A stretch of 64,000 nucleotides of DNA from Candidatus Binatia bacterium (GCA_035631035.1 DASQJL010000096.1:1234-65233), one strand, 5' to 3'; positions 33,072-48,990 are shown, counted from the stretch's first letter. The notes: generated by a model from the letters alone, not told the origin. A program made the numbers and translations.

Positions 33072-33860
33072 TCAGGGCCGCTTGCGGGCTTTCCAGACTT
33101 CCTCCGACGGCCACTGTCGCGCCCATTCCGCCGTGACGAAGGGATGGCGCGTGGTCGCGCCTTCCGGCGGGCGCACCTCGACGAGGTCCTCCACTTCGAA
33201 TCCGGCACCGCGCAGGATCCGGAACCATTCGCCGTGGCTCTTGTGGAACTCGACGCCCGAATCGCCGGGCCAGGCGATCCGCCCCATCCCGAACGCGGGG
33301 CGAAGAAGTCGCTCGCCGGCCGCCTCGGTTTCATCCTCCGGCATGCAGAGCATCAGGAGGAACGCGTTGGTCAGGAAGTGGAGCCGCCCGCCGGGTCGGA
33401 GGAGTCGCGCGGCCTCCGGCACCCATTGCTCCGGATCGGCCCAGAGACACGCCCCGTATTCGGAGATCGCGAAGTCGAACGATGCGTCCGGATAGGGGAC
33501 CGACTCCGCGTTGCCATGGACCAGCGGAAATTCGAGGCCGTGCTCGCGCTGAAGCCGGCGCGCGGTTTCGAGCTGCGTCTCGGAATTGTCGATGCCGACG
33601 ACGCGGGCGCCGCGGCGCGCGAGCCAGGAGGAAACGTACGCCGTGCCGCATCCCAGCTCGATCGCGTCGCGGCCCGAGAGGTCGTCCGGAAGCATTCCGA
33701 TCTCTCGCTCGGGAATGTTCCAGATGCCCCAGGTCGGCTCGCGCGCCGCCCAGTGGCGCTCGCCCGAGGCGACGTAATCGCTCGCTTTCTGGTCCCAGTA
33801 CGTCCGGTTGTGGAGGACGTGCTCCGGAAGCTCCGTCACACGCTTCCCGGTTACATCCAC
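33072..33860 (-). CDS. Class I SAM-dependent methyltransferase
   Basis: Motif I IELGCGTAY. Post-I acidic residue. Confidence 0.75.
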   Translation of the reverse strand: MDVTGKRVTELPEHVLHNRTYWDQKASDYVASGERHWAAREPTWGIWNIPEREIGMLPDDLSGRDAIELGCGTAYVSSWLARRGARVVGIDNSETQLETARRLQREHGLEFPLVHGNAESVPYPDASFDFAISEYGACLWADPEQWVPEAARLLRPGGRLHFLTNAFLLMLCMPEDETEAAGERLLRPAFGMGRIAWPGDSGVEFHKSHGEWFRILRGAGFEVEDLVEVRPPEGATTRHPFVTAEWARQWPSEEVWKARKRP

Positions 33861-34363
33861 GGCTCGTCCGCGGTCGGTCCATAGATCGAGGGCACCTTGC
33901 CTCCCGCCATGCGGAGGTAGATGGAGAACTGCCCTCGATGGTGGATCTGATCGTGGAGCAGGAACCAGCAGACGTTCATGCGCGGGATGTCGCCCATCTG
34001 TTTCGGGCCGACGAAGAAGCGGACCGTCTCTTGAAGTTTCTCCTCCGGCATCGACCGGATCAGGTTGCCGAACTCGCGATGGGCGTCCTCGACGGCCTCG
34101 ATCAGCTCGAACCAGGAGCTGGGCGCGGGCGGAGGGTTGCCCGAGGGGGCGCTGCTCGCAAACGCGTCGTTCATGAGCATCACGCCCAGGCCGCGTTCCA
34201 GCTTGAAGACCCAGGCCAGCTCGCGCGCGGTCTTCGACATGGCGTGGGGCCGGAGATCCAGCTTGTCCTCGGGGTAGGCGTGGAGGATACGCATGGTGCG
34301 CTGGTGCTCGTCTTCGTAGACGGCCAGGAACTGCTCTTTATGGGAATGGGTGATGGTCGCCAT
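33851..34363 (-). CDS. DinB family (damage-inducible, four-helix-bundle metal-binding) protein
   Basis: HDQIHHRGQ signature. Confidence 0.8.
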   Translation of the reverse strand: MATITHSHKEQFLAVYEDEHQRTMRILHAYPEDKLDLRPHAMSKTARELAWVFKLERGLGVMLMNDAFASSAPSGNPPPAPSSWFELIEAVEDAHREFGNLIRSMPEEKLQETVRFFVGPKQMGDIPRMNVCWFLLHDQIHHRGQFSIYLRMAGGKVPSIYGPTADEPWM

Positions 34364-34476
34364 GGGGCAGGCTCCTAACGCCGCGCCCGGGGCGCGGACG
34401 GGAAGAGACTAGTTCGCGATCGATCGGAGCCGGGGGCTGCTCCCGGGTCGGAATCGGATCGTAACTCGATTGTCGC

Positions 34477-35061
34477 CTATGGGCGGGGCGGCTTGGAAGC
34501 GGGATAGAGGGTGCCCACCTGGCGCTCCCGATGGGCCGCGAACAGCGTTCGTTCGACCGCTCGCGCCGTGACGTCGAGCTCCGCCGCCACGCCCCGAAGC
34601 ACGTGGAGGAACTGGAACCACTGATCGAGGGTGAGCCCGGCGCCCCGGGCATTGCCCCGCACGGCGCCCATCGCGTGCAGCAGCTGCCACACGCGAATGT
34701 CGATCACGCCGTAGCGCCCGGGCTCGAGCATAGTGAGCACCGCGGAGGCCGAGGGGGCGGAGACGCCCCTCAGCGAGAGCAGGCGCTCGAAGCGCTCCCG
34801 CTCCTCCACGCTCCGGATCGCCGCTTCCGTGGCGGTGCGGACGCGGCGCGCGCCGTTTTCGCGGACGAGTCCCGTGGATCGCGGGGATTTCCAGCGGCAG
34901 ATCCGGATCAGCTCCCCCCTCGTGAGGTAGCCGCGGACGTTCGCGGGACGCACCGCTTCGATCAGGGAGGAAGTCGCCGGGTCCTCGACGGCGATCATCC
35001 GCTCCCGCACGAGCGCGATCAGGGAAGGTTCGGGGCGCGAGCCTGCGATCACGCCCCGCAT
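34477..35061 (-). CDS. Hypothetical protein with a helix-hairpin-helix-like motif
   Basis: LLSLRGVSAPSASAVL resembles the HhH LxxLxGVGxxTA motif. Its start is 6 nt after the DUF3037 stop. Confidence 0.5.
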   Translation of the reverse strand: MRGVIAGSRPEPSLIALVRERMIAVEDPATSSLIEAVRPANVRGYLTRGELIRICRWKSPRSTGLVRENGARRVRTATEAAIRSVEERERFERLLSLRGVSAPSASAVLTMLEPGRYGVIDIRVWQLLHAMGAVRGNARGAGLTLDQWFQFLHVLRGVAAELDVTARAVERTLFAAHRERQVGTLYPASKPPRP

Positions 35062-35067
35062 CCGCGG

Positions 35068-35466
35068 TCAGCTTCGCCGCGGCGTCCGGACCATCGTCTC
35101 GAGCAGGTGCTCGAGGAGTGCGGCCGGGTCCGTGCAGGCGCCGGTGTGGACGGCCGAGGTCTGGATGACCGTGCTGCGCGGCGCGGTGAGCCAGCGGAAG
35201 CGCTCCCGCTTCGAGAGGGCCCCGATCGGTCCCGCGGAGGGGCCGCCCGCGCAGATCGCGGGGAGGGTCGCCAAGTGGGCGCGGATCGTCGCAAGGTCGG
35301 CGCCGGGGTCCAGCGCGAGCAGCCGGCCCTCGTCCAGCTCGATGCGGGCCTCCAGGAAGTCGCTCGCCGGGCAGGAGACGATCGCTCCGGCATTGATGAA
35401 CTCCTCCCGCTCCACCTTCGGGACCACGCGGACGATGGCGTAATCGTACGGGCTAGGCTCGGGCAC
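35068..35466 (-). CDS. DUF3037 domain protein
   Basis: N-terminal YDYAIVRVVPKVEREEFINAGAIV matches the DUF3037 signature (Y.Y.V.R.VP...R.EF.N.G.I). It overlaps the kinase-like gene by 14 nt. Confidence 0.7.
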   Translation of the reverse strand: MPEPSPYDYAIVRVVPKVEREEFINAGAIVSCPASDFLEARIELDEGRLLALDPGADLATIRAHLATLPAICAGGPSAGPIGALSKRERFRWLTAPRSTVIQTSAVHTGACTDPAALLEHLLETMVRTPRRS

Positions 35467-36217
35467 GGATCGCCTCTTCCAGGAAGGGCCGCGGCGTCTC
35501 CAGGCGGCGCGCCAGATACTTCACGTAGGCATCGCGATGCTCGGCGGCCGTCGCGAAGGGTGCGTCGACCAGCCAGGTGTCGGGGACCAGCGAGACGATG
35601 CGCCGCAGCTCGTCCGGAGTGACCCGCTTGTCCAGCGCGGCATCGGCTTCCTCCATCCGGGAGGCCGCGGGAAGGAGCACGTGGTCGCGAATCATCGGGA
35701 AGGGATCGCGGCTCCGCTCCAGCCAGTGCTCCCACGTGTGGTGGAAGTAGAGCGCCGATCCGTGGTCGATGAGCCACGTGCGCCGGTGCCACACGAGCAG
35801 GTTGGTATTGCGTGGCGTCCGGTCGATGTTCGTGACGAAGGCGTCGAACCAGACCACCAGGGATGCGAACCCCGGATCCGGCTTCTCCGCCACGGGATCG
35901 AACATGATCGAGCCCGGCAGGTAGTCGAGCGCCAGGTTCAGCCCGCCGCTCGCGCGGATCAGGTCCTGGATCTCCGGGTCGGGTTCCGTGCGCGCGAGGT
36001 CGGGGTCCAGCTCCACGAACACGATCTCCGGAACGGGAAGCCCGGCGGCGCGCGCGATCTCGCCGCACACGAGCTCCGCGATCAGCGCCTTGGCGCCATG
36101 TCCCGCGCCGCGGAACTTGAGCACGTACATGCCGTCGTCGTCGGCTTCGACGATCGCGGGCAGCGAGCCTCCCTCGCGGAGCGGGGTCACGTAGCGCGTG
36201 GCCGCGACCGTGCGCAT
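35453..36217 (-). CDS. HipA-like / PI3-4-kinase-like putative Ser/Thr kinase
   Basis: Gly-rich loop region. Catalytic-loop-like NIDRTPRNTN (DRxxxN). IDHGSA (DFG-like). Fixed pairing with DUF3037. Confidence 0.6.
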   Translation of the reverse strand: MRTVAATRYVTPLREGGSLPAIVEADDDGMYVLKFRGAGHGAKALIAELVCGEIARAAGLPVPEIVFVELDPDLARTEPDPEIQDLIRASGGLNLALDYLPGSIMFDPVAEKPDPGFASLVVWFDAFVTNIDRTPRNTNLLVWHRRTWLIDHGSALYFHHTWEHWLERSRDPFPMIRDHVLLPAASRMEEADAALDKRVTPDELRRIVSLVPDTWLVDAPFATAAEHRDAYVKYLARRLETPRPFLEEAIRARA

Positions 36218-36234
36218 CTAGAGGGCGCGCCGCG

Positions 36235-36666
36235 TCATCGGCCCAGGAACCTGTCGATCTGCCGGCGGTGCCGCAGCACGTGCACGATCGCGTGCTCGAA
36301 GAGCTGCTCGAAGTCATAGATCGGTCCCCAGCGAACGGTCATCTTCATCTCGGTGCATTCCTGGTCCGTCATCTCCCAGTGGCCCTCGAGGGTCTCGGCC
36401 ATGTAGGCGAGCGTCTTCCGCATCTCGGCCGGCGTATCGGCGCGGCGGACCGGTTCGTCCCACCGGACCACGGGCTCCTTCTTCCAGTGCGTCCGCATGT
36501 AGTTCGCGTAGCCGTACCCGGCTCGGACCACGTGCCTCATGATGGTCTGGATCGAGCGGCAATCCTCGTCCTGGGTCGTGGTGTCGCGGACCCGATCGAA
36601 CTCCTCATCCGAGATCCCCTCCAGAATCCGGATCAGCTCCGCCGAGGCGCGCTCGTACTCGTCCAT
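36235..36666 (-). CDS. DinB/YfiT-like (DinB_2 family) protein
   Basis: His triad candidates (IMRHVV, EGHWEM, HAIVHVLRHRRQ). The start could instead be the upstream GTG near 36705. Confidence 0.6.
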   Translation of the reverse strand: MDEYERASAELIRILEGISDEEFDRVRDTTTQDEDCRSIQTIMRHVVRAGYGYANYMRTHWKKEPVVRWDEPVRRADTPAEMRKTLAYMAETLEGHWEMTDQECTEMKMTVRWGPIYDFEQLFEHAIVHVLRHRRQIDRFLGR

Positions 36667-36901
36667 CAACGCGCCGACGGGTCCCTTCCTGTAGGTCTTG
36701 GCCACGGCTCCTCCGCAAGGTGGTGTGTGGGCGGCGATTCTGGCCCAGGAACCGGCCGGAAGCCAAGGGCTGCTTCCAGCCATGGCCCTTCCCGGCGGTG
36801 AAGAATTCTCTGAGCGCGCCGATACCTTGGTAGCGCGCCGGGGGCCGGGGCTCCGCGTGGCGCGCCCTCGCCGCGACCCACCCTGCAACCGGAGCGAAAC
36901 C

Positions 36902-38629: not shown

Positions 38630-38658
38630 TTGACAACTGCACAAACGTTCACTATCTT
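38630..38658 (+). promoter_or_regulatory. lexA promoter (TTGACA-17-TATCTT) with an embedded LexA box TGCACAAACGTTCA (38638-38651)
   Basis: The operator sits between the -35 and -10 elements. It is near-identical to the dinB cassette. It matches the Fibrobacter-type consensus TGCNCN4GTGCA with one half-site variant (GTTCA). Confidence 0.6.
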
Positions 38659-38669
38659 CCTTTTCAGCC

Positions 38670-39428
38670 ATGAAGAAGAAGCCCAACCCCAGCGGGGCCC
38701 GGGGAAAGCGGCCCCCCACGCGCACGCCCTCTCCCGAGGCGATCCTCTCCTACATCGAGGAGTCGCTTCGCGATACGGGCCGCCCGCCCACGATTCGGGA
38801 AATCGGAGCCGTCTTCGGGATCGCCTCCACCAATGGAGTCCGCTACCACCTCGATAAGCTGGAGCGGGAAGGCAGGATCCGGCGGGATCGATTCACCAGT
38901 CGAGGCATCGAAGTACAGTTGGCCGGCGGGCGCGGCGCGACGCATATGGACACCTTGCCCTCCATGTCGCCCGCGTTTCGCCGAGCCAACGTTCCTCGAG
39001 GGACTGTGGCTGGCGTCCCCGGTGGCCTTGAACGGGATCTCCTTGAAGTCCCCCTCCTGGGCCACGTCGCCGCCGGCGCGCCCCTCCTCGCCGAAGAGCA
39101 CATCGAGGACACCCTGACCCTCGACCCGGCGATGGTGCGGCCCGGCGGCAAGCACTTCGCCCTGCGGGTGCGCGGCGACAGCATGAAGAACGCCGGGATC
39201 CTGGACGGCGACGTGGTCATCGTCCGGCACGACACTCCCGTGAAGAGCGGCGAGATCGCCGTCGTGCTGATCGGCGACGAAGCCACCGTGAAGCGCTTCT
39301 TTCCGCGGCGCGACAAGCTCCTGCTATTTCCTGAAAACGAAGACTACGAACCGATCGAAGTGCGTCCGGCCGATCCCGACGTGCGGGTGGCGGGCAAGGT
39401 GGTGGGTGTATTTCGGAGGCTCGGCTGA
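38670..39428 (+). CDS. lexA: LexA repressor (HTH + S24 autopeptidase) with a Lys/Arg/Pro-rich N-terminal extension
   Basis: PTIREIGAVFGIASTNGVRYHL HTH. Cleavage-site region VAAG. Catalytic S (VRGDSMKNAGILDGD) and K (ATVKRF). Confidence 0.9.
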   Translation: MKKKPNPSGARGKRPPTRTPSPEAILSYIEESLRDTGRPPTIREIGAVFGIASTNGVRYHLDKLEREGRIRRDRFTSRGIEVQLAGGRGATHMDTLPSMSPAFRRANVPRGTVAGVPGGLERDLLEVPLLGHVAAGAPLLAEEHIEDTLTLDPAMVRPGGKHFALRVRGDSMKNAGILDGDVVIVRHDTPVKSGEIAVVLIGDEATVKRFFPRRDKLLLFPENEDYEPIEVRPADPDVRVAGKVVGVFRRLG

Positions 39429-39724
39429 TGCTCCATGCGCGATCGTTTCCATCCGAGAGAGACGGCTACTTCATGATCGAGTCCATCCACGACCCCATCG
39501 AGGTCATCACCATGTTCTCCGGCGGAACGATGAAGCCGATCCGCTTCCGCTGGAAGAACAAGACCGTGCGCATCGCCAAGGTGACGGGGGACTGGGTCCG
39601 GCACGAGGGGGAGAACAAGGTCCACTACTTCGCGCTTCTCGCCGACAACGCGGACTACTACGAGATCCGCTACGACGCGCGCGAGATGACCTGGCAGCTC
39701 ACGCGGGTGTGGATGGAGGGGTAG
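39428..39724 (+). CDS. Small protein (98 aa) translationally coupled to lexA (stop/start overlap TGATG)
   Basis: GGAGG SD 8 nt upstream of the ATG that overlaps the lexA stop. The sequence KPIRFRWKNKTVRIAKVTGDWVRHEGENKVHYFALLADNADYYEIRYDAREMTWQL is beta-rich and has no known motif. Confidence 0.5.
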   Translation: MLHARSFPSERDGYFMIESIHDPIEVITMFSGGTMKPIRFRWKNKTVRIAKVTGDWVRHEGENKVHYFALLADNADYYEIRYDAREMTWQLTRVWMEG

Positions 39725-40193
39725 CCCCGCTCCACGTCCACGAGCCGAGCAGGCGCTCACGCCGGCGCCCGGGCCAGCGGCGGAACTCCTCGGACGGAAC
39801 GAACCCGAGCAGGCTGTCGCAGTCCTGGCGCCGGATGAAGCGGACCCACCCCGACAGCGGTTCCCGAACGAGAACGACACGGCCGGCGAAGATCTCCTCC
39901 AGCGCTCCGATGACGGCGCCGAGGATGGCTCCATCGGACGCCGCGCCCCAGACCAGGATCTTCTCGGCGGGACCGGGAGGGACGCCGTCGTCGTAGGCGA
40001 TCGTCGCCCCCTCCTCGTAGAGGTCGGCGCGAAGCTCATGTCCGGGGCGGCCCGGCACCGGCAGACGGACCGACATGTGGACCGTCATGGAATCCACGCT
40101 CGGGTCCAGCTCCGGATGAAGGGCCCGTAGACGCGCGGCCAGGAGCGTCGCGACCCGGCGGGTCTGCTCGGTCAGGGTGAGCGCGTGCTTCAA
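39699..40193 (-). CDS. Hypothetical protein (about 165 aa)
   Basis: TTG start overlapping the HAD stop (TTGA). It converges on the small lexA-linked ORF with a 26-nt overlap. The gene boundary is uncertain. Confidence 0.4.
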   Translation of the reverse strand: MKHALTLTEQTRRVATLLAARLRALHPELDPSVDSMTVHMSVRLPVPGRPGHELRADLYEEGATIAYDDGVPPGPAEKILVWGAASDGAILGAVIGALEEIFAGRVVLVREPLSGWVRFIRRQDCDSLLGFVPSEEFRRWPGRRRERLLGSWTWSGATPPSTPA

Positions 40194-40939
40194 GGGATCG
40201 CGCCCTCGTCGACATGCCCCGGGGCATGTCGCAGCTCGGACAGGCTGCGCACGATGCGATCGGGGCGTACGTCGCTGCCCGATGGGATCCCCGCGCCTCC
40301 TCGGTCGATCCAGATGGCGTAGATCCCGAGGCGCTGCGGGGCGGCGACGTCCCATTCGAGATTGTCCCCGGCCATCCAGGTCTCGTGCGGCGCGGCCTGC
40401 AGCTCGTCCAGCGCGATCCGGTACACGCGCGGATCGGGCTTGCCGTAACCCAGCTCCCCCTCGATCAGAACCAAATCGAAGAGCTCGGCCAGCTGAAAGC
40501 GCACCACCTTGCTCCTCTGGGCAGCCGCGGCGCCGTTCGTGAGGAGGGCCAGCCTGCGGCCGCTCTGCTTGAACCAGCGCACGGTCTCGATCGCATCCTC
40601 CAGCGGCTGGAGGCCCAGGTGCCGCTGGGCGCGATAGTGCTCCGCGATCTTCTCGGCCAGCTCCGGCGACTCGAGCCCGATCTCCACGAGCGAAGCGCGT
40701 ACGACCTCCCGCCGCGCGGCATCCAGGTCCAGGCGCCCCTCCCGATGGCGCTCGGGATCGGACCAGAACCACGCGCGCGTTTTCTCGATGACGGCGTGGA
40801 GCGCGGAGGGATCGACCGCGCCCAGCTCGTCGCGGTGGGCGCGGCAGGCCTCCAACCAGCAGTGGGAGACGTTGCCGCTGTCGTCGAGGATCGTGTCGTC
40901 GAGATCGAGGAGGACGGCCTTGGGAAGGGCTCCGGTCAC
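40190..40939 (-). CDS. HAD-superfamily hydrolase
   Basis: Motif I LLDLDDTILD. Motifs II and III (LLTNG, GDNLEWD). Confidence 0.8.
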   Translation of the reverse strand: MTGALPKAVLLDLDDTILDDSGNVSHCWLEACRAHRDELGAVDPSALHAVIEKTRAWFWSDPERHREGRLDLDAARREVVRASLVEIGLESPELAEKIAEHYRAQRHLGLQPLEDAIETVRWFKQSGRRLALLTNGAAAAQRSKVVRFQLAELFDLVLIEGELGYGKPDPRVYRIALDELQAAPHETWMAGDNLEWDVAAPQRLGIYAIWIDRGGAGIPSGSDVRPDRIVRSLSELRHAPGHVDEGAIP

Positions 40940-40949
40940 GGGCGCCGTC

Positions 40950-41750
40950 TCAAGCCCTGCTCCCGCGCACGGCCCACGCGCGCGCGATCAGGTGGATCGA
41001 GCCGTCCGCCTCGACCGGCAGCCGCGAGCGGATTCGGTCCCGCAGCGCGCCCCGGCGCGCCTCTTCCAGCGACATGGCGTAGCCCGGCGCGGGGCCCTGG
41101 CCGCCGAGGAAGGGGGACCAGTAGTCGTCGAAATCGCGAAACACGGTCGGGACGTCGATCGCACGCGTCCGGACGTCGCTCAGGTGCCCTCCGGAAAATA
41201 CATCGGCGAGCGCCTCGGGGTGGCAGAGCGGGAATCGGGTCCCTTCGTCCAGCTCGCGGGCCGCGGGATCGAGGGCGATGGCGGCGTCCCAGAAATGCCG
41301 GAGCAGCTCCATGCGCCCCGAGTAGTCCCAGACATAGGCCGCGGCGACGCCTCCGGGGCGGAGCGCGCGAGACATCTCGCCCACGGCGAGTGCCGGCTCC
41401 GGAACGAAGTTGAGGAGCAGGGCGGAAACCGCTGCGTCCACCGAGGCGTCCTCGACCGGAAGCGATCGGGCGTCGCCCACCTCGAACGTCGCGACCGTGC
41501 GCTCCCCGATGCGCGCACGGGCGTAGTCGACGTACGCGGGGGAGGCGTCGATGCTCCGCACCGACCGGGGGCTGGAGCGATCGAGAAGGGTCTGGGTCAA
41601 GGCACCGGTGCCGCACCCGACGTCGAGCCAGGCCCTGCCCGGCGGCACGTCGAGCCACGCGAGGAATTCGGGGGCCACGCGACGGCTCCATCGGCCGACG
41701 AAGGGCTCGTAGAGGTCGCCCGCGGCCCAGACGTCTTCGGGGGTCATCAC
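40950..41750 (-). CDS. Class I SAM-dependent methyltransferase
   Basis: Motif I LDVGCGTGALT. Divergent from dinB. Confidence 0.8.
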   Translation of the reverse strand: MMTPEDVWAAGDLYEPFVGRWSRRVAPEFLAWLDVPPGRAWLDVGCGTGALTQTLLDRSSPRSVRSIDASPAYVDYARARIGERTVATFEVGDARSLPVEDASVDAAVSALLLNFVPEPALAVGEMSRALRPGGVAAAYVWDYSGRMELLRHFWDAAIALDPAARELDEGTRFPLCHPEALADVFSGGHLSDVRTRAIDVPTVFRDFDDYWSPFLGGQGPAPGYAMSLEEARRGALRDRIRSRLPVEADGSIHLIARAWAVRGSRA

Positions 41751-41781: not shown

Positions 41782-41810
41782 TTGACAACTGCACAAATGT
41801 GCAATATCGT
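41782..41810 (+). promoter_or_regulatory. dinB operon promoter (TTGACA-17-TATCGT) with a perfect palindromic LexA box TGCACAAATGTGCA (41790-41803)
   Basis: Same cassette architecture as at lexA. It matches TGCNCN4GTGCA exactly. Confidence 0.65.
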
Positions 41811-41882
41811 AGTCGTGTGACCTGCTTGAGGCGCCTCGCCAGTCCTCGATCGTGGAACGCAGAGCCCTGGGAGTGACCTTCC

Positions 41883-43154
41883 GTGCGGATCGTGGCGCAC
41901 ATCGACATGGATGCCTTTTTCGCCTCGGTCGAGGAGAAGCTGAACCCGCGGCTCGCGGGAAAGCCGCTGGTCGTGGGAGGGTCCAGGGACAGCCGCGGGG
42001 TCGTCTCGGCGGCCAACTACGCGGCGCGTCCGTACGGGATCCACGCCGGCATGCCGATTGCCGAGGCGGTGCGCCTCTGTCCTGAAGCGGCCTTCATCGA
42101 AGGCGACCCCAGGAAGTACGTTCACATCTCTCTCCAGATCCTCGACACGCTGAAAGACTTCACCCCCATCGTCGAGCCGTTCAGCATCGACGAGGCGTTC
42201 CTCGACCTGACCGCGGTGGAGCGTCTTCGTCCTCGAACGGAAGACGGCGACCACGAGACCTGCCTGAACGCGGCGATCCCGCTCGCCCAGGCGATCCAGC
42301 GCGCGGTGCATCGGCGCGTGGGGCTGACGGCCTCGATCGGGATCGCCCCCAACAAGTACGTCGCCAAGATGGGGAGCGGCCTCCGGAAGCCGAACGGGCT
42401 CACGGTGCTCTCGATCCGCCGCTTTCGCGAGATCTTCGAATCGAAGCCGGTCAACGAGCTGTGGGGGATCGGAGAGAAGACGGCGGCTTCGCTCGCCACA
42501 CTCGGCATCCGCACGGCGGGGCAGCTCGCCCGCTTTCCCCGGGAGTTCCTGACCTATCATTTCGGGCTGAGCGGCGATCACATGCAGGATGCCGCGCGGG
42601 GCGACGACGAATCCGAGGTGGTGCCCTACTTCGAAGGGGTGCCGGTCAAGTCGATGGGGCACGAGTACACGCTGCCGGAGGACGTGTCGGATCGCGAGCG
42701 CATCCGCGCGCACCTCCTCCGCCTGAGCGATCAGGTGGGCCGACGCCTTCGCGTCGACGGATACCTGGGCCGTGTGATCGCGGTGAAGTTCCGCAATGCG
42801 CGCTTCAAGACCACCATCCGCCAGCGCGCGCTGGCCGAGGTGACCGACGACGAGAACGTCATCTATGGCACCGCGTGCATCCTCCTCGACGAGAACTGGG
42901 ACGGAAAGCCGCTGCGCCTGGTCGGCGTCTCGGTGTCGGACCTCGTCTCGGCGCAGGGATTCCATCAGCACGATCTCTTCTCCACCGACGAGCGCCGGCG
43001 AAGAATGACCGAGGCTGCGGATTCGCTGCGGAACAAGTTCGGGGACGCGGTCCTGGTGCGGGCGGGAGCGCTGGATCATGGCGACACGCAGCGCCTCTCT
43101 CGTGAGGGAGCCAGTCGGAGTCTCGTCCGGGTCCTCGCCGACGAGCGACGATGA
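41883..43154 (+). CDS. dinB: DNA polymerase IV (Y-family, DinB)
   Basis: N-terminal IVAHIDMDAFFASVEE and SIDEAFLDLT catalytic motifs. Confidence 0.9.
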   Translation: MRIVAHIDMDAFFASVEEKLNPRLAGKPLVVGGSRDSRGVVSAANYAARPYGIHAGMPIAEAVRLCPEAAFIEGDPRKYVHISLQILDTLKDFTPIVEPFSIDEAFLDLTAVERLRPRTEDGDHETCLNAAIPLAQAIQRAVHRRVGLTASIGIAPNKYVAKMGSGLRKPNGLTVLSIRRFREIFESKPVNELWGIGEKTAASLATLGIRTAGQLARFPREFLTYHFGLSGDHMQDAARGDDESEVVPYFEGVPVKSMGHEYTLPEDVSDRERIRAHLLRLSDQVGRRLRVDGYLGRVIAVKFRNARFKTTIRQRALAEVTDDENVIYGTACILLDENWDGKPLRLVGVSVSDLVSAQGFHQHDLFSTDERRRRMTEAADSLRNKFGDAVLVRAGALDHGDTQRLSREGASRSLVRVLADERR

Positions 43155-44143
43155 GCGACCGACCCAAGATCGTGCTCGGCACCTCGGGATGGTCCTTCAA
43201 GGACTGGGTGGGGCCCTTCTATCCGCCCGGCACGAATCGGGCGCACATGCTGGACTACTACGCGGGCGAGTTCCAGGCGGTCGAGGTGAACTCCACCTAT
43301 TACCGGATTCCGCACTGGCGCACGTTCGAGGCGATCGCGAAGAAGACGCCTCCCGGGTTCGAGATCGTCGTGAAGACGCACCACGACATGACGCACCTGC
43401 GCTCCCGCGAGCCCGATCTCTACCGGGACTTCGAGCGCTCCATCCAGCCGCTGCTCGAGGCGGGGAAGCTCACGGGGATCCTCGCGCAATTCCCCTACGC
43501 GTTCCGGCGCACGCGTGAAAACGAGGAGTTTCTTCACGCCCTGCCCGACCTCCTCGGCCGATGGGTACCGCTCTTCGTGGAGTTCCGCCACCGGTCCTGG
43601 GTGGACGACGCCGTCTTTCAGGATCTCCAGAAGGAGGGCCTTGGCTACGTCAGCGTGGACGAGCCGGACCTTCCGGGCCTGGTCCCGCCGATCGCGCGCC
43701 GCACGGGGCCGATCGGGTACGTCCGCTTTCATGGCCGGAACAAGGAGAAGTGGTGGGGGGCCGAGTCGCGCGATCGAGGGGCGCCCGACGGGCCGGGAGT
43801 GAAGCGGGATGCCGCGAAGAGCGCAACGCCCGATGACAGGGGCAAGGCCCGCACGCGAGTCCGCGCCGGTGCGGACTTGGGCCCGCTCTTCAGCGGCACT
43901 CCCGACCATCCCGCCGAGGCGCCACCCTTGCCGGCTCCGCCCGCCTCCGAGCCGCGCACGTCCAGCACGCGCTACGACTGGTCCTACACCGAAGAGGAGC
44001 TGCGCGAGTGGATGGACAAGATCCGTGAGATGACGCAGCAGGCCAAGAAGACGTTCGTCTTCTTCAACAACTGCCACGTGGGGCAGGCGGCGACCAGCGC
44101 CAAGCTGATGCGGAAGCTGCTCGAGGGGGAGGGGATGCTGTGA
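43151..44143 (+). CDS. DUF72 (YecE/TM1631-like TIM-barrel) protein with an inserted low-complexity segment
   Basis: N-terminal IVLGTSGWSFKDWVGPFYP and C-terminal FVFFNNCHVGQAATSA, typical of DUF72. ATGA overlap with dinB. Confidence 0.8.
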   Translation: MSDRPKIVLGTSGWSFKDWVGPFYPPGTNRAHMLDYYAGEFQAVEVNSTYYRIPHWRTFEAIAKKTPPGFEIVVKTHHDMTHLRSREPDLYRDFERSIQPLLEAGKLTGILAQFPYAFRRTRENEEFLHALPDLLGRWVPLFVEFRHRSWVDDAVFQDLQKEGLGYVSVDEPDLPGLVPPIARRTGPIGYVRFHGRNKEKWWGAESRDRGAPDGPGVKRDAAKSATPDDRGKARTRVRAGADLGPLFSGTPDHPAEAPPLPAPPASEPRTSSTRYDWSYTEEELREWMDKIREMTQQAKKTFVFFNNCHVGQAATSAKLMRKLLEGEGML

Positions 44144-44168
44144 GCCGGGGCGCGAGCGGAGCGGGGAC

Positions 44169-46676
44169 ATGACGGGCGGGGGTGTCGCGGGGGGAAGCGA
44201 TTTCGTCCACGGGCCGGGACTCTTCGACGCCGAGCGCGGCGAGCGCGGGCCGCGTTCCGGCGCTCCCGAGACCCTGGACGAGTACGAGGCGCTCCTGCAG
44301 GCGCTCACCTCGCGGGACCGTCGATTTGTCCACGGTCCCTACGGGCTCCGCCGCCGTCCGAACGAGCTGGTGCACCTGGAGCGCCTCCCGGCCCGGCCCG
44401 CCGTGTACGGCGACCTCGCCGAGCCTCTGCCGCAAGCGCTCCAGGGCGTGCTACGCGAGGCGGGCATCGAACGCCTCTACACCCACCAGGCCCAGGCGGT
44501 GGATCTCGCGCGCTCCGGCGCGAACGTCGCCGTCGCAACGGGCACCGCGTCGGGGAAGTCGCTCGCCTATCACCTGCCGATCCTCGAGCGGCTCCTCCTC
44601 CAGCCGGGCGCCACCGCGCTCTACCTGTTTCCGACCAAGGCCCTCGCCCAGGACCAGCTGCGCGGCCTCCTGCGCTTCGCCGCGGCGTCTCCAGCGCTCG
44701 GGCGCGCGCTCGCGACCGGCACCTACGACGGAGACACTCCCGGCGAGTCGCGCCGCAAGCTCCGCGAGCGCGCCAACGCGATCCTCACGAACCCCGACAT
44801 GCTCCACCAGGGGATCCTCCCGTACCACTCCCGATGGAGCCGGATCTTCTCCAACCTGCGCTACGTCGTGGTGGACGAGATGCATACCTATCGCGGCGTG
44901 TTCGGGTCCCACGTCGCCAACGTGCTCCGACGGCTGAAGCGGATCGCGCGCCACTACGGCGCCGATCCCCGCTTTCTTCTGAGCTCCGCCACCATTCGAA
45001 ATCCGCGCGAGCTGGCGGAGTCGCTGGTCGGGGAGCCGGTCCGTGTCGTGGACGAGGATGGCGCGCCCCGCGGACCCAAGCTCTTCGCGTTCTGGAATCC
45101 CAGACATGCCGGTCCCGAGCAGGCGGGCGCGCGAACCTCCACGTCGATCGAAGCCGAGCGCATCCTGGTCTCGCTCATCCGGCGGCAGGTCGCCTCGATC
45201 GCGTTCACGCGGTCGCGCGTCTCCGCCGAGCTGATCTACCGCTACGCGCGCGAGCAGCTGGAGGAGCGGGGGCGCCGCCGCGCCGAGAAGGCCGAGGGCG
45301 GGGCGGTCCCGCTCGCCGACCGGCTGAGTCCCTACCGCGGCGGCTACCTTCCCGAGGAACGGCGCGCCATCGAGCGCCGCCTCTTCGACGGGGACCTCCT
45401 CGGCGTCATCTCGACGAACGCGCTCGAGCTGGGGATCGATGTCGGGTCGCTGGACGCGGCCGTGCTCGTCGGCTTCCCCAACACCATCGCGAGCACCTGG
45501 CAGCAGGCGGGGCGCGCGGGCCGCTCGCAGGCGCCGTCGCTCGCGATCGTCGTCGCCTACGACGATCCGATCGATCAGTACCTGATGCGCCACCCCGAGT
45601 ACTTCTTCGCGCAATCGCCGGAGAGCGCCGTCGTGGATCCTTCCAACCCCTACGTGCTCGCGTCGCACCTCGCCTGCGCCGCGCACGAGCTGCCGCTCTC
45701 GCGCGCCGACGAGGTCTGGTTCGGGCCGAGGGCCGAGGCGCTCGGGCGCCTGCTGGAAGAGGAAGGCACCGTCAAGTCGCTCGACGGCCTCCGTTACTGG
45801 TCTTCGTCCGAATATCCGGCGGGGCGGGTCAACCTGCGCACCATCTCCGACGACACCTACACCATCCTCGAGCGGAAGCCCGGCGCTCCGGAAGCGGAGG
45901 CGAGGACCCTGGCCACGGTGGACGCGATCAGCGCGCCGGAGCTGATCTACCCCGAGGCGATCTATCTGCACGAGGGAGACACCTGGTTCGTGCGCGAGCT
46001 GGACCTGCAGCAGAAGGTCGCCTACGTCGAGCGGCAGGAGGTGGACTACTACACGCAGCCGGTGCTGGACACGCGGCTGCGGCTGACCGAGACCCGCGAA
46101 ACGAAGCGCTGCGGCGAGTGCGAGGTGGGCCTGGGGACAGCGAACGTCTCCTGGGCCACCGTCGCCTTCAAGAAGATCCGCTTTCGGAGTCTCGATGCCA
46201 TCGGCTATCACCCGCTCGATCTCCCCCGCCTGAACCTGGACACGGTGGCGCTCTGGATCCGCCCCGACGAGTCGGCGCGCGCGGCGGTGCGCGTGAAGGG
46301 GATGAATCCCGCCGAGGGGATGTCGGGACTCCGCAATCTGCTCGTCACGCTGCTTCCGCTTCACGCCATGTGCGACCGGCCGGACCTGGGAGGCGTCCTC
46401 GACAGCGCGAACCTCGGCGAGCAGGCGATCTTCCTCTACGACCGCTACCCGGGCGGGCTGGGCTACGCGGAGCGCGGCTACGCCATCGTGGACGACCTCC
46501 TGCGCGCGACGCTCCGCATGATCGAGGACTGCCCCTGCGAGATCGGGTGTCCCTCGTGCGTCGGCCTCCCGGTCCTCCGCCCCGCGCAGCAGCAGGACTA
46601 CGACCTGCACGGCGGCTGGCCCATCCCGAACAAGGCCGCCACGGAGGCGCTGCTCCGGCGCCTTCTCGGGGCCTGA
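44169..46676 (+). CDS. mrfA: MrfA-like DEAD/DEAH-box helicase with C-terminal DUF1998 zinc-binding domain
   Basis: Walker A ATGTASGKS. DEMH box (VVVDEMHTY). Helicase C motifs. C-terminal CPCEIGCPSCV cluster (DUF1998). Confidence 0.85.
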   Translation: MTGGGVAGGSDFVHGPGLFDAERGERGPRSGAPETLDEYEALLQALTSRDRRFVHGPYGLRRRPNELVHLERLPARPAVYGDLAEPLPQALQGVLREAGIERLYTHQAQAVDLARSGANVAVATGTASGKSLAYHLPILERLLLQPGATALYLFPTKALAQDQLRGLLRFAAASPALGRALATGTYDGDTPGESRRKLRERANAILTNPDMLHQGILPYHSRWSRIFSNLRYVVVDEMHTYRGVFGSHVANVLRRLKRIARHYGADPRFLLSSATIRNPRELAESLVGEPVRVVDEDGAPRGPKLFAFWNPRHAGPEQAGARTSTSIEAERILVSLIRRQVASIAFTRSRVSAELIYRYAREQLEERGRRRAEKAEGGAVPLADRLSPYRGGYLPEERRAIERRLFDGDLLGVISTNALELGIDVGSLDAAVLVGFPNTIASTWQQAGRAGRSQAPSLAIVVAYDDPIDQYLMRHPEYFFAQSPESAVVDPSNPYVLASHLACAAHELPLSRADEVWFGPRAEALGRLLEEEGTVKSLDGLRYWSSSEYPAGRVNLRTISDDTYTILERKPGAPEAEARTLATVDAISAPELIYPEAIYLHEGDTWFVRELDLQQKVAYVERQEVDYYTQPVLDTRLRLTETRETKRCGECEVGLGTANVSWATVAFKKIRFRSLDAIGYHPLDLPRLNLDTVALWIRPDESARAAVRVKGMNPAEGMSGLRNLLVTLLPLHAMCDRPDLGGVLDSANLGEQAIFLYDRYPGGLGYAERGYAIVDDLLRATLRMIEDCPCEIGCPSCVGLPVLRPAQQQDYDLHGGWPIPNKAATEALLRRLLGA

Positions 46677-46709
46677 CGCGCGCCGCGCCGCGCGCCGGAG
46701 ACAGGCCCG

Positions 46710-47714
46710 ATGCTCTCCAAGACACTCCGGGACAGGATCGGGGGGCTGCTCCGGCAAGGCGCTCTGGACATTCCGGTCCCGCACGGGAACGGAGATTCGA
46801 ATGGCCATGCGGCCGCGCCCCCGCTGTTCACCCCCGAGCCGCGTCGCCACTTCGTCGCGACGGGGATCGAGGAGATCCTTCCCGGCGGCGTGATCGAGAC
46901 CGCGCAGGGGACCGTCTTCGCGCATGAGCGGCTCTACACCGATCTGGGAGAGCGTCCCGTACCCCTCCTCCGCCGGCTGGCCGAGCTCTGCGCCTACCCC
47001 GGGTGCGCGCCGGAGCGCCATGGAACGGGTCCACACTGGGTCGAGATCCCCGGCGTCGACTGCCCCTATCCCGCGCTCCCGGAACGCGCGCGCGCGCGCC
47101 GGCGCCGGCCGCGGGATCTGGCGGAGGCGACGGGCCTTCACGACCCTCCGGAGCAGGGGATGTTTCGCCGGTTCGGATACCGGCGCGTGCTCTACTTGGA
47201 CATCGAAACGTGCGGGCTCTCGGCGGCGCCGGTGTTCCTGGTCGGGCTCTGCATGGTGGGGGAGCGGAATCTCATCCTGCGCCAGCTCTTCGCGCGGGAC
47301 TACGCCGAGGAGCGGGCGCTCCTGGTGGAGCTCAAGCGCCTGGCCGGGGAGCACGACTTCCTCGTGACCTTCAACGGCAAGGCGTTCGACGTGCCCTTTC
47401 TTCGCGACCGCGCCGTGCATCACCGCCTCGATCCGCCGATCGCGATGCCCCACCTGGACCTGCTCTGGATGGCGCGCCGGCGCTGGAAGGATCTCCTTCC
47501 GGACTGCAAGCTGAAGACGATCGAATGGCGGGTGCTCCGGCGGAGGCGCGCGGGCGACGTGGGAGGATCGGAGATCCCCGGGCTCTACCACGACTACGTG
47601 AAGCGGGGCGAGGCCCACCGGCTGCTTCCGGTGTTCCATCACAACCTGCTCGACGTGGTCGCGATGGTGGAGCTGACGCCGGTCATCTTCGACCCGGATG
47701 TCGGGATCTACTAG
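46710..47714 (+). CDS. mrfB: MrfB-like RNase H-fold (DEDDh) 3'-5' exonuclease
   Basis: Exo I motif YLDIETCGL. Exo II FNGKAFDVPFL. Exo III H..D (HHNLLDVVAM). Confidence 0.75.
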   Translation: MLSKTLRDRIGGLLRQGALDIPVPHGNGDSNGHAAAPPLFTPEPRRHFVATGIEEILPGGVIETAQGTVFAHERLYTDLGERPVPLLRRLAELCAYPGCAPERHGTGPHWVEIPGVDCPYPALPERARARRRRPRDLAEATGLHDPPEQGMFRRFGYRRVLYLDIETCGLSAAPVFLVGLCMVGERNLILRQLFARDYAEERALLVELKRLAGEHDFLVTFNGKAFDVPFLRDRAVHHRLDPPIAMPHLDLLWMARRRWKDLLPDCKLKTIEWRVLRRRRAGDVGGSEIPGLYHDYVKRGEAHRLLPVFHHNLLDVVAMVELTPVIFDPDVGIY

Positions 47715-47769
47715 AGAGCGGCGACGCGAGCGAGTGATCGAGGAGCGGGAGAGGAGCGGGACGGGGTCC

Positions 47770-48342
47770 CTAGGAGGAGCTTCGCGCGCCCCACATCTCG
47801 CGCGTGAGCTCGAAGCGGAGCGAGCCGGGATCGGACGGGGCCTCGTTCGCCCGCACGAAGCCGTTCTTCTCGAGGACCCGCTGGGAAGGGCGCCCCTCCG
47901 GCAGCGTCTCGGCGACGACGCGGCGTACGCGCGGGTCGCTAAAGGCCCACGCCAGCGTGGCCCCCACCGCCTCCGTGGCCAGCCCTCTCCCGTAGTACTC
48001 CTCCACGATGGAGTACCCGATCTCGATCGTCCCGCGGGGGTCGGGCGGTCCCTTGAAGCCGCCCCCTCCGATCAGGAGCGGCCGCCGCTCCGGCGCGCCC
48101 GCCTGGGGCCGCACCAGCCAGGACCAGCCCAGGAACCCGACCGCCTCGGGGTGCTCCTCCAGCCGGCGGCAGAGGAAGTCGCGCCCCTCCTGGTCGTTCT
48201 CCCCGGGGGGCCAGGCCCCGTGGATCTCGGCCCCCAGCAGACGGGCCAGCTCGGCGCGGTCGGCCGCCTCCGCCCGGGCGATGGCCGGGGTGGAGGCGAT
48301 CAGGAAGAGGCGCTCGGTTTGGAGTTGGATCGACTCGGTCAC
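47770..48342 (-). CDS. GNAT family N-acetyltransferase (RimJ/RimL-like)
   Basis: Acetyl-CoA-binding motif region YGRGLATEAVGATLAWAF. Confidence 0.8.
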   Translation of the reverse strand: MTESIQLQTERLFLIASTPAIARAEAADRAELARLLGAEIHGAWPPGENDQEGRDFLCRRLEEHPEAVGFLGWSWLVRPQAGAPERRPLLIGGGGFKGPPDPRGTIEIGYSIVEEYYGRGLATEAVGATLAWAFSDPRVRRVVAETLPEGRPSQRVLEKNGFVRANEAPSDPGSLRFELTREMWGARSSS

Positions 48343-48453
48343 GACATTATCCTTTCATGCGTACCGAATCTCGGCAACCCAGGAACCACGGCAGGTCCTC
48401 GTTCCATCGAAGTACGATCGCGTCACCCCACAACCCGGAAGGAGTCTTCCCCC

Positions 48454-48990
48454 ATGAAACGCCATCTGCTTGCATTGGGAGTCCTCGCTCTCGCCATGTC
48501 GGCGGCCCCCGCGCTGGCCGACGACGCCGCCACCCCGGCCCAGCCGGACAACGCAGCCCAGATGGCCCAGCCGGCCGCGGCCCAGCACGTGGTCTACGCC
48601 GCCAAGGACCTCAAGTGGATGGATGGCCCCCCGGGTCTCCCCGCGGGCGCCAAGTTCACGGTTCTCGCCGGAAACCCGATGGCGCCGGGGATCTACACGA
48701 TTCGCGCGATGTTCCCCGCCGGCTACAAGATCCCGGCGCACTTCCACGCCGCCGATGAGAACGTCACCGTGATCGCCGGCGAGTTTGGGATCGGCATGGG
48801 CGACGCCCTGGACATGGCGAAGGGCGATGTCATGAGCTCGGGCGGCTTCACGTCGCTTCCGGCCGGCATGCACCACTTCGCCTGGACCAAGAAGGGCGCC
48901 ACGGTCCAGATCCACGGCATGGGGCCGTTCTCGATCACCTACCTGAATCCTTCCGAGGATCCGCGGAACGCCAAGGAAGCCGCCAAGTAA
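48454..48990 (+). CDS. Secreted cupin-domain protein
   Basis: GGAAGGAG SD. Signal peptide MKRHLLALGVLALAMSAAPALA. Cupin His motifs (PAHFHAADENV ... GMHHFAW). Confidence 0.7.
   Translation: MKRHLLALGVLALAMSAAPALADDAATPAQPDNAAQMAQPAAAQHVVYAAKDLKWMDGPPGLPAGAKFTVLAGNPMAPGIYTIRAMFPAGYKIPAHFHAADENVTVIAGEFGIGMGDALDMAKGDVMSSGGFTSLPAGMHHFAWTKKGATVQIHGMGPFSITYLNPSEDPRNAKEAAK

Follow-up and report, generated by a model that had tools for sequence, protein, structure and literature searches.

DNA polymerase IV (Pol IV, the product of dinB) is a specialist for minor-groove adducts at the N2 of guanine. Mitomycin C, on which the helicase-exonuclease pair MrfAB acts in Bacillus subtilis, alkylates this same N2 position, so that these known components converge on one lesion class. 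Three crystal structures exist for the DUF72 family, the first from 2004, and its members include Escherichia coli YecE. A role of DUF72 as a DNA-repair endonuclease was proposed on computational grounds in 2013 (PMC3828134), when docking and molecular dynamics by Konc et al. predicted that the member TM1631 binds damaged DNA (PMC3828134; the TM1631 prediction also in PMC4939058). A 2025 survey found DUF72 enriched near polB2 translesion operons that are themselves lexA-enriched (PMC11791011), which is an independent link of DUF72 to a different translesion polymerase, PolB2; in the literature searched we found no experimental function for the family. For MrfB, slight activity on nicked plasmid was reported in the first study (bioRxiv 10.1101/426304), and nicked and gapped duplexes were degraded in a later one. 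Here we analyse a stretch of 64,000 nucleotides (DASQJL010000096.1:1234-65233 of assembly GCA_035631035.1, labelled Candidatus Binatia bacterium; hereafter the window), in which dinB, a DUF72 gene, mrfA and mrfB form a four-gene operon (41782-47714) behind a candidate operator of the SOS repressor LexA.

Operon architecture and the LexA-type operator

Pfam matches place the four genes on the plus strand where the initial annotation had put them, and the features on which the argument rests are the following:

41782-41810, plus strand: dinB promoter, TTGACA (-35, 41782-41787), a 17-nt spacer and TATCGT (-10, 41805-41810), matching 10 of 12 consensus positions
41790-41803, plus strand: candidate LexA operator TGCACAAATGTGCA (TGCAC-AAAT-GTGCA), inside the spacer of the dinB promoter
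41883-43154, plus strand: dinB, Pol IV of 423 aa with a GTG start (Pfam IMS, IMS_HHH and IMS_C)
43151-44143, plus strand: DUF72 TIM-barrel protein of 330 aa (PF01904, E=2.7e-58, two matched stretches)
44169-46676, plus strand: mrfA/yprA-type DExH helicase of 835 aa (Pfam DEAD, Helicase_C, WHD_HRQ1 and MZB, formerly DUF1998)
46710-47714, plus strand: mrfB-type DEDDh 3'-5' exonuclease of 334 aa (RNase_H_2 type)
38630-38658, plus strand: lexA promoter, TTGACA (-35), ac, operator TGCACAAACGTTCA (38638-38651), c, TATCTT (-10), designed as at dinB
38670-39428, plus strand: lexA, cleavable repressor of 252 aa (Pfam LexA_DNA_bind and Peptidase_S24)
47770-48342, minus strand: convergent GNAT acetyltransferase gene that marks the operon end (gene calls on identical contigs)

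The junctions are also those described before, with a 4-nt ATGA overlap between dinB and DUF72, a gap of 25 nt between DUF72 and mrfA and one of 33 nt between mrfA and mrfB; in relatives, DUF72 and mrfA abut or overlap by 4 nt. Scanning 10.2 kb for sigma-70-like consensus sites yielded only two, before dinB and before lexA (the mean in shuffled sequence was 0.4), and no internal promoter-like site within the operon. The same gene order is present on two metagenome contigs that carry the exact DUF72 protein. As a fifth operon gene we considered an open reading frame (ORF; 47698-48990) that overlaps the end of mrfB and rejected it: its Pfam matches are confined to residues 290-412, and the gene calls on the identical contigs give the minus-strand GNAT gene and a cupin gene start at 48454 instead.

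The assignments of the enzymes to known families held up on closer inspection. MrfA matches B. subtilis YprA/MrfA (6znp) with E=4.3e-187 over residues 67-802 and TIGR03817 with 3.7e-228, and it displays motif I (ATGTASGKS), motif II (DEMH), a four-cysteine zinc cluster (CPCEIGCPSC), the DExH core, a winged helix and the MZB domain. MrfB matches its B. subtilis counterpart (8un9) with E=6e-18 and retains the DEDDh motifs DIET, NGKAFD and HHNLLD; the exonuclease core spans residues 156-322, the protein ends 12 residues later, and no TPR domain match was found in it. In place of the B. subtilis TPR domain stands a clade-specific N-terminal region of ~155 aa that has no Pfam match. Within this region (residues 1-155, 46710-47174), GIEEILPGGV...G..FVHERLYTDLGERP forms a conserved block; a variable linker separates it from DPPERGLFRRFGHRR, which is likewise conserved and sits just ahead of the core. 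DinB scores 307.9 bits against NF002677 (cut-off 256) and has the catalytic motifs DMDAFF and SIDE.

Of the 17 nucleotides that separate TTGACA from TATCGT, the candidate operator takes up 14. It had been described as a perfect palindrome; the inverted repeat between -35 and -10 is real, but perfection is limited to the 5+5 arms of TGCACAAATGTGCA, TGCAC and GTGCA, which flank a non-palindromic 4-nt spacer, and the 14-mer as a whole is not palindromic. The gene for the presumptive regulator, overlooked by the initial annotation, lies 3 kb upstream of the dinB operon inside the window. Its product scores 182.7 bits against TIGR00498 (cut-off 110.95) and has the cleavage site VAAG as well as the serine (GDSM) and the lysine (VKR) of the Ser/Lys dyad. 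The lexA promoter, cTTGACAacTGCACAAACGTTCAcTATCTT, is identical in design to that of dinB and sits 19 nt upstream of the lexA ORF; its repeat TGCACAAACGTTCA is a near-copy of the dinB repeat, and the lexA promoters of relatives carry exactly TGCACAAATGTGCA. The same box, at the same place, in the repressor's own promoter is the classical signature of LexA autoregulation.

To place these sites in a wider frame, we surveyed 80 loci from GTDB species representatives (1.096 Mb in total), almost all of them metagenome-assembled genomes (MAGs) of Candidatus Eisenbacteria. Exact TGCAC-N4-GTGCA sites occur 53 times, compared to ~1.2 expected from base composition, and all 53 are immediately upstream of lexA (16), DUF6504 (21) or dinB (16), with none elsewhere. 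Every locus with lexA, namely 16 GTDB loci and at least 34 metagenome contigs, has the motif in front of that gene. The consensus reads C-TTGACA-AC-TGCAC-RAAT-GTGCA-(G/C)-TAT, and in a more distant clade the -35 and -10 elements are partly degenerate while the arms are invariant. When metagenome contigs were scanned for the full cassette TTGACA-N2-TGCAC-N4-GTGCA-N-TAT, at least 123 occurrences were recovered on at least 120 contigs. Downstream of it lies lexA in at least 34 cases, including homologues from low-GC organisms that are just 35-45% identical, and, among the matches listed, dinB in at least 10, DUF6504 in at least 7, the gene of an HD-domain protein in at least 6 and an operon of a small protein and a Hel308/Ski2-like helicase on at least 17-20 contigs. 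Such a set of downstream genes is what an SOS regulon would be expected to look like, and the Hel308-like and HD-domain gene sets are likely further regulon members in related, partly low-GC organisms. Examples are a Hel308/Ski2-like helicase of 912 aa with a helix-hairpin-helix domain (L197) and an HD-domain protein of 437 aa (L120). The small protein before the helicase has C-terminal Cys pairs (L093/L145) that look zinc-ribbon-like by eye, and it has no Pfam match.

Taken together, the reading of the repeat as a LexA box is strongly supported, and LexA control of the operon, predicted by the initial annotation, is reinforced by a lexA gene in the window with the same promoter/operator design and by phylum-wide retention of the motif before lexA, DUF6504 and dinB. 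A similar box, TGCNCN4GTGCA, has reportedly been assigned to LexA of Fibrobacter succinogenes; TGC-A-C-AAAT-GTGCA fits TGCNC-N4-GTGCA exactly. Compared to it, the Eisenbacteria consensus (C)TGCAC-RAAT-GTGCA(G/C) is more constrained and is embedded in a fixed TTGACA-N2-box-N-TAT promoter. No paper linking Eisenbacteria with LexA or the SOS response was found.

The split cluster and its relatives

The window holds a split version of an ancestral operon, lexA-DUF6504-dinB-DUF72-mrfA-mrfB, a point missed by the initial annotation. Relatives whose DUF72 is 55-60% identical have this cluster uninterrupted, with DUF6504 between lexA and dinB. In the window, the following genes lie between lexA and dinB:

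39428-39724, plus strand: DUF6504 gene (98 aa; PF20114, score 26.7 bits, cut-off 24.2), which came second in the ancestral operon and whose start overlaps the stop of lexA
39699-41750, minus strand: three genes that split the operon, encoding a 164-aa protein of unknown function, a HAD hydrolase (40190-40939) and an S-adenosylmethionine methyltransferase (40950-41750)

The three splitting genes are absent from the contiguous clusters of L003, L005, L006, L012, L016 and others. Unrelated genes are inserted after DUF6504 or lexA in the window, in its close relatives L009-L011 and in the more distant L014, L017, L023 and L026, and in such interrupted operons each piece (lexA, DUF6504, dinB onward) has its own nearly identical promoter/operator copy, L014 having three cassette copies (sites at 1222, 5130 and 8696). 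As each separated piece carries a copy of the cassette, the dinB promoter of the window is a duplicated lexA promoter. The whole cassette has evidently been duplicated repeatedly, with control by the box kept at every operon break; in the window, three unrelated genes were inserted after DUF6504 and the promoter/operator was duplicated before dinB, an arrangement that keeps LexA control.

DUF6504 is better conserved than any other protein of the cluster (80-98% identity in relatives whose DUF72 reaches 55-60%) and stands out as a strongly conserved companion of lexA and dinB. A word-indexed search for homologues gave 19 close relatives; no paper mentioning the family was found, and a fold search gave nothing informative. 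One possibility is that it assists LexA or Pol IV as a conserved accessory factor. Divergent copies (25-37% identical) occur after lexA or before dinB, with the same operator, in low-GC lineages (GC 0.40-0.53; L092, L096, L104, L105, L119, L121, L147 and L164).

We then mapped the window's six proteins by tblastn onto 87 loci, made up of the 80 from GTDB and of L001-L007, two of which are the contigs identical to the window; the DUF72 proteins of these loci were arranged in a neighbour-joining tree. The initial annotation had proposed to check whether DUF72 adjoins dinB or mrfA in relatives, and it does: dinB is directly upstream of DUF72 in 62 of the 76 loci with enough upstream sequence, and mrfA lies downstream in 29 of the 68 with enough downstream sequence, all of one clade. 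Three DUF72 clades emerged within Eisenbacteria, namely dinB-DUF72-mrfA-mrfB, a boxed DUF6504-dinB-DUF72 without mrfAB, and solo DUF72 with no box nearby. This distribution points to DUF6504-dinB-DUF72 as the deep core, which mrfAB joined in one clade. Low-GC lineages with the same box have lexA-DUF6504 or DUF6504-dinB and lack DUF72. The loci were chosen by similarity to the query, so the sample speaks to Eisenbacteria and not to other phyla. DUF72 itself is a large family of wide distribution, with more than 5,700 relatives at E<=1e-10 among just the 8,000 candidates examined.

The source of the window is an uncultured member of Candidatus Eisenbacteria (NCBI phylum Eiseniibacteriota): the named DUF72 homologues and the GTDB loci are almost all Candidatus Eisenbacteria MAGs, and one genome scan returned almost only Eisenbacteria. 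The same cluster, with DUF72 51-93% identical, was also seen on contigs labelled Omnitrophota, Bacteroidota, Limnocylindrales, Hyphomicrobiales, Acidobacteriota, Binatia and Udaeobacter (L008, L010, L011, L015, L020, L059 and L085), which are probably mis-binned Eisenbacteria and not cases of horizontal transfer. At one locus (L043, CAVUEC010000011.1, 10001-13370), the DUF72 alignment falls into two frames or pieces and that of mrfA covers only residues 15-224 and 536-828, a fragmentation that could reflect pseudogenisation or assembly errors; the cluster is also present on another contig of this MAG (L027).

Upstream of lexA in the window (~33851-36705, minus strand; L001 701-3555), we also observed two genes of the DinB/DinB_2 (YfiT-like) family, which is unrelated to Pol IV, and a HipA_2-DUF3037 gene pair, with no operator found nearby.

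The DUF72 protein and its insert

The DUF72 protein scores above the Pfam gathering threshold and has the fold of the solved members. A profile of 35 clade members matched TM1631 (1vpq) with E=2e-69 and EF0366 (1vpy) with 2.6e-35, and the closest structures outside DUF72 were MbnB/DUF692, xylose-isomerase-like sugar isomerases and epimerases, and glycoside hydrolases; UVDE was not in the top 60 fold matches of the profile. Against NF007637, an equivalog named 'hypothetical protein' that we take to be the E. coli YecE family, the window protein reaches just 26 bits. Endonuclease IV and UVDE (AP_endonuc_2) have the TIM-barrel fold in common with DUF72, and a damage-specific incision role is conceivable. 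Matches to several TIM-barrel enzyme classes are comparable, so the fold does not single out a nuclease.

In the TM1631 model, N44, K72, Q114, R145 and R191 hold the DNA phosphate and Y47/Y48 intercalate (PMC3828134). Across the alignment of 35 sequences, there is no variation at the equivalent residues of the window protein (N47, K75, Q113, R146, R192 and Y50/Y51). Since such invariance fits any conserved active site, it does not prove a DNA substrate.

The low-complexity segment that the initial annotation had placed at about residues 190-270 is real, with slightly different bounds:

43757-43969, plus strand: disordered low-complexity insert of DUF72 (~residues 203-273), between the HGRN and RYDY motifs

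Residues 209-275 have a predicted local distance difference test score (pLDDT) <50 in the AlphaFold model, and the insert contains the motif DLGPLFS, with GPLF at residues 244-247 (nt 43880-43891). In most DUF72 proteins without a mrfA neighbour, the HGRN-RYDY loop is ~11 aa long (xxxWWGRGGGD); in the mrfA-linked clade it is 30-77 aa long, of low complexity and predicted to be disordered. The GPLF-bearing insert is confined to this clade, and the motif [D/E/A][L/Y/F]GPLF[S/A] is invariant in 26 of the 33 loci in which mrfA follows DUF72. We rejected a strict correlation between the insert and mrfA adjacency, which is broken by P0117/L208 (mrfA adjacent, no insert) and by L032-L036, L052 and L054 (insert without GPLF). 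In the latter subclade, an ORF of 406 aa is located between DUF72 and mrfA (L033:10919-12139, plus strand); it has no Pfam, NCBIfam or PADLOC match, its C-terminal part shows an HNH-like signature by eye (EFDHV...CRAHN), and it may be a selfish endonuclease gene inserted in the operon.

Two other operon proteins have comparable motifs. The N-terminal tail of MrfA bears G-[P/L/S]-x-L-F-[E/D], common to the clade (GPGLFD at residues 15-20 in the window, with GPGLF at nt 44211-44225), and DinB has QHDLF (residues 362-366, nt 42966-42980) at the position of the canonical beta-clamp motif, QxxLF being kept in 70 of 72 homologues. Thus, three of the four operon proteins (DinB, DUF72 and MrfA) have an xxLF motif in a disordered segment, and it is attractive to hypothesise from these motifs that the proteins may dock on a common partner, the beta clamp, or on each other. 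A PPLF in the MrfB N-terminus, considered as another GPLF-type copy, was rejected because it is not conserved in 23 homologues.

A repair module, its alternatives and known systems

We lean towards the view that the genes form a LexA-repressed SOS operon in which Pol IV, DUF72 and MrfAB act together on bulky or minor-groove guanine adducts. TGCAC-N4-GTGCA would most likely be bound by LexA, whose gene lies 3 kb upstream. Since the repeat fills the spacer between -35 and -10, LexA sitting on it would stand in the way of RNA polymerase. Upon DNA damage, RecA-stimulated self-cleavage of LexA would then allow dinB, DUF72, mrfA and mrfB to be transcribed as one message; both LexA binding and co-transcription are what we infer from the placement and conservation of the operator and from the architecture of the operon. 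The module would combine tolerance and excision: Pol IV would bypass the lesions or fill the resulting gaps, and MrfA (3'-5' helicase) and MrfB (3'-5' exonuclease) would strip the damaged strand. Logically, some step must expose a 3' end at the lesion, and the published MrfAB model leaves it unassigned. That DUF72 supplies this 3'-end exposure, or lesion recognition, is speculative; it would act on damaged DNA before MrfAB, most likely in lesion recognition or in an incision that gives MrfB a free 3' end, and the disordered GPLF loop gained in the mrfAB clade might tether it to the beta clamp or to DinB/MrfA. In its most explicit form, the proposal makes DUF72 the enzyme that would recognise or incise the lesion in an SOS-inducible excision pathway independent of UvrABC, with DinB, DUF72 and MrfA gathered on the beta clamp through their xxLF motifs; we put this forward tentatively and regard it as rather unlikely in full.

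Several observations weigh against a cooperating repair module with DUF72 as its nuclease. The structures outside DUF72 listed above score at least as well as apurinic/apyrimidinic (AP) endonucleases, the endonuclease IV match is no better than that of sugar isomerases, the solved DUF72 structures have no active-site metal (PMC3828134), and the published MrfAB model needs no separate incision enzyme (bioRxiv 10.1101/426304). Within Eisenbacteria, one clade of DUF72 has neither repair neighbours nor an operator nearby. GPLF is missing from 7 of the 33 mrfA-linked loci, P0117 has no insert though mrfA directly follows DUF72, and neither the DUF72 nor the MrfA motif has the glutamine that is canonical for clamp binding. 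Furthermore, LexA binding and co-transcription are predictions from sequence, and the organism is uncultured. The nuclease-like role that the initial annotation ascribed to DUF72 is therefore not established, in view of the fold matches and of the clade without repair neighbours. The same fold matches, the missing catalytic metal, the solo genes without repair context in the same phylum and the mere 26 bits to NF007637 would suit an enzyme that acts on a small molecule (a damaged nucleotide, a sugar-phosphate, or a genotoxin or its by-product) and is merely co-regulated in a genuine SOS operon, being needed under the same stress as the repair genes. We consider this possible, though rather unlikely: DUF72 overlaps or abuts dinB and mrfA in tight coupling, it gained a disordered linear-motif insert in the mrfA-linked clade, its predicted phosphate-binding residues and Tyr-Tyr pair are invariant, and it is independently associated with PolB2 and lexA (PMC11791011).

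The regulatory and the repair assignments themselves can also be questioned. The palindrome might be the operator of a regulator other than LexA, or a mere conserved promoter element, with the operon outside the SOS response, as the motif is unlike the Gram-positive and E. coli LexA boxes. This is improbable given that the motif stands before lexA in every lexA locus, even where LexA is as low as 35-45% identical, that no other regulator gene is conserved in the neighbourhood, that the downstream genes (dinB, mrfAB and a Hel308-like helicase) concern DNA damage and that the window LexA has an intact DNA-binding domain and cleavage residues. We give hardly any credence to the idea that the helicase, nuclease and DUF72 constitute a YprA-family anti-phage defence system (like DISARM, Druantia or Dpd) rather than a repair system. 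The helicase does partially match PADLOC SngC (2.6e-38) and BrxH (2.1e-35), but these matches are limited to the generic helicase core, compared to a full-length match to MrfA, and the other five cluster proteins, including DUF72, MrfB, DinB and DUF6504, have no PADLOC match. In addition, a survey assigns MrfB-associated helicases to a repair branch, and LexA control, a translesion polymerase and phylum-wide chromosomal synteny fit repair.

On balance, the SOS operon is real, its gene content is new, and it offers a useful lead for DUF72; the evidence from regulation and synteny is strong, and the biochemical claim is unproven. A likely SOS box and a core SOS operon are defined for the candidate phylum Eisenbacteria, and MrfAB can belong to a LexA regulon. 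A DNA-damage role of DUF72 is supported by the LexA-type operator, by the translational coupling to a translesion polymerase and, in one clade, by the coupling to MrfAB. The initial annotation had framed such a role as new; it was in fact proposed in 2013 (PMC3828134), and the lexA/polB2 association followed in 2025 (PMC11791011). The present evidence does not depend on the earlier docking study and neighbourhood note and is stronger than these, and it names partners (MrfA, MrfB, Pol IV and the clamp) and substrates (mitomycin C and N2-guanine adducts). As the arrangement recurs across the phylum, a DNA-damage role of DUF72 is directly testable, and an excision role, if true, would be the first function for a large family with crystal structures since 2004.

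In the literature that we found, neither the combination of DUF6504, DUF72, MrfAB and dinB nor an SOS box of Eisenbacteria is described, and the locus departs from each of its nearest counterparts in a defined way. Relative to TM1631 (1vpq) and EF0366 (1vpy/1ztv), the window DUF72 differs by the disordered GPLF insert of ~70 aa between the HGRN and RYDY motifs, and it sits in an operator-controlled repair operon; the TM1631 prediction is purely computational. With MrfAB of B. subtilis, the locus has in common a full-length helicase homologue followed by a DEDDh exonuclease with all catalytic motifs. As the initial annotation had pointed out, the arrangement is unlike that in Bacillus: the B. 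subtilis papers describe a two-gene operon without mention of LexA, whereas here the pair lies behind a LexA-type operator together with dinB and DUF72. Moreover, MrfA has the N-terminal GPGLF tail motif that distinguishes it from B. subtilis MrfA, and MrfB has its clade-specific N-terminus where B. subtilis MrfB has a C-terminal TPR domain (bioRxiv 10.1101/426304). Finally, the SOS translesion cassettes lexA-dinB, imuA-imuB-dnaE2, umuDC and lexA-linked polB2 likewise have an autoregulated repressor gene and an error-prone polymerase that is either co-transcribed with it or under the same box, but in the Eisenbacteria operon it is DUF6504, DUF72 and MrfAB that accompany the Y-family Pol IV.

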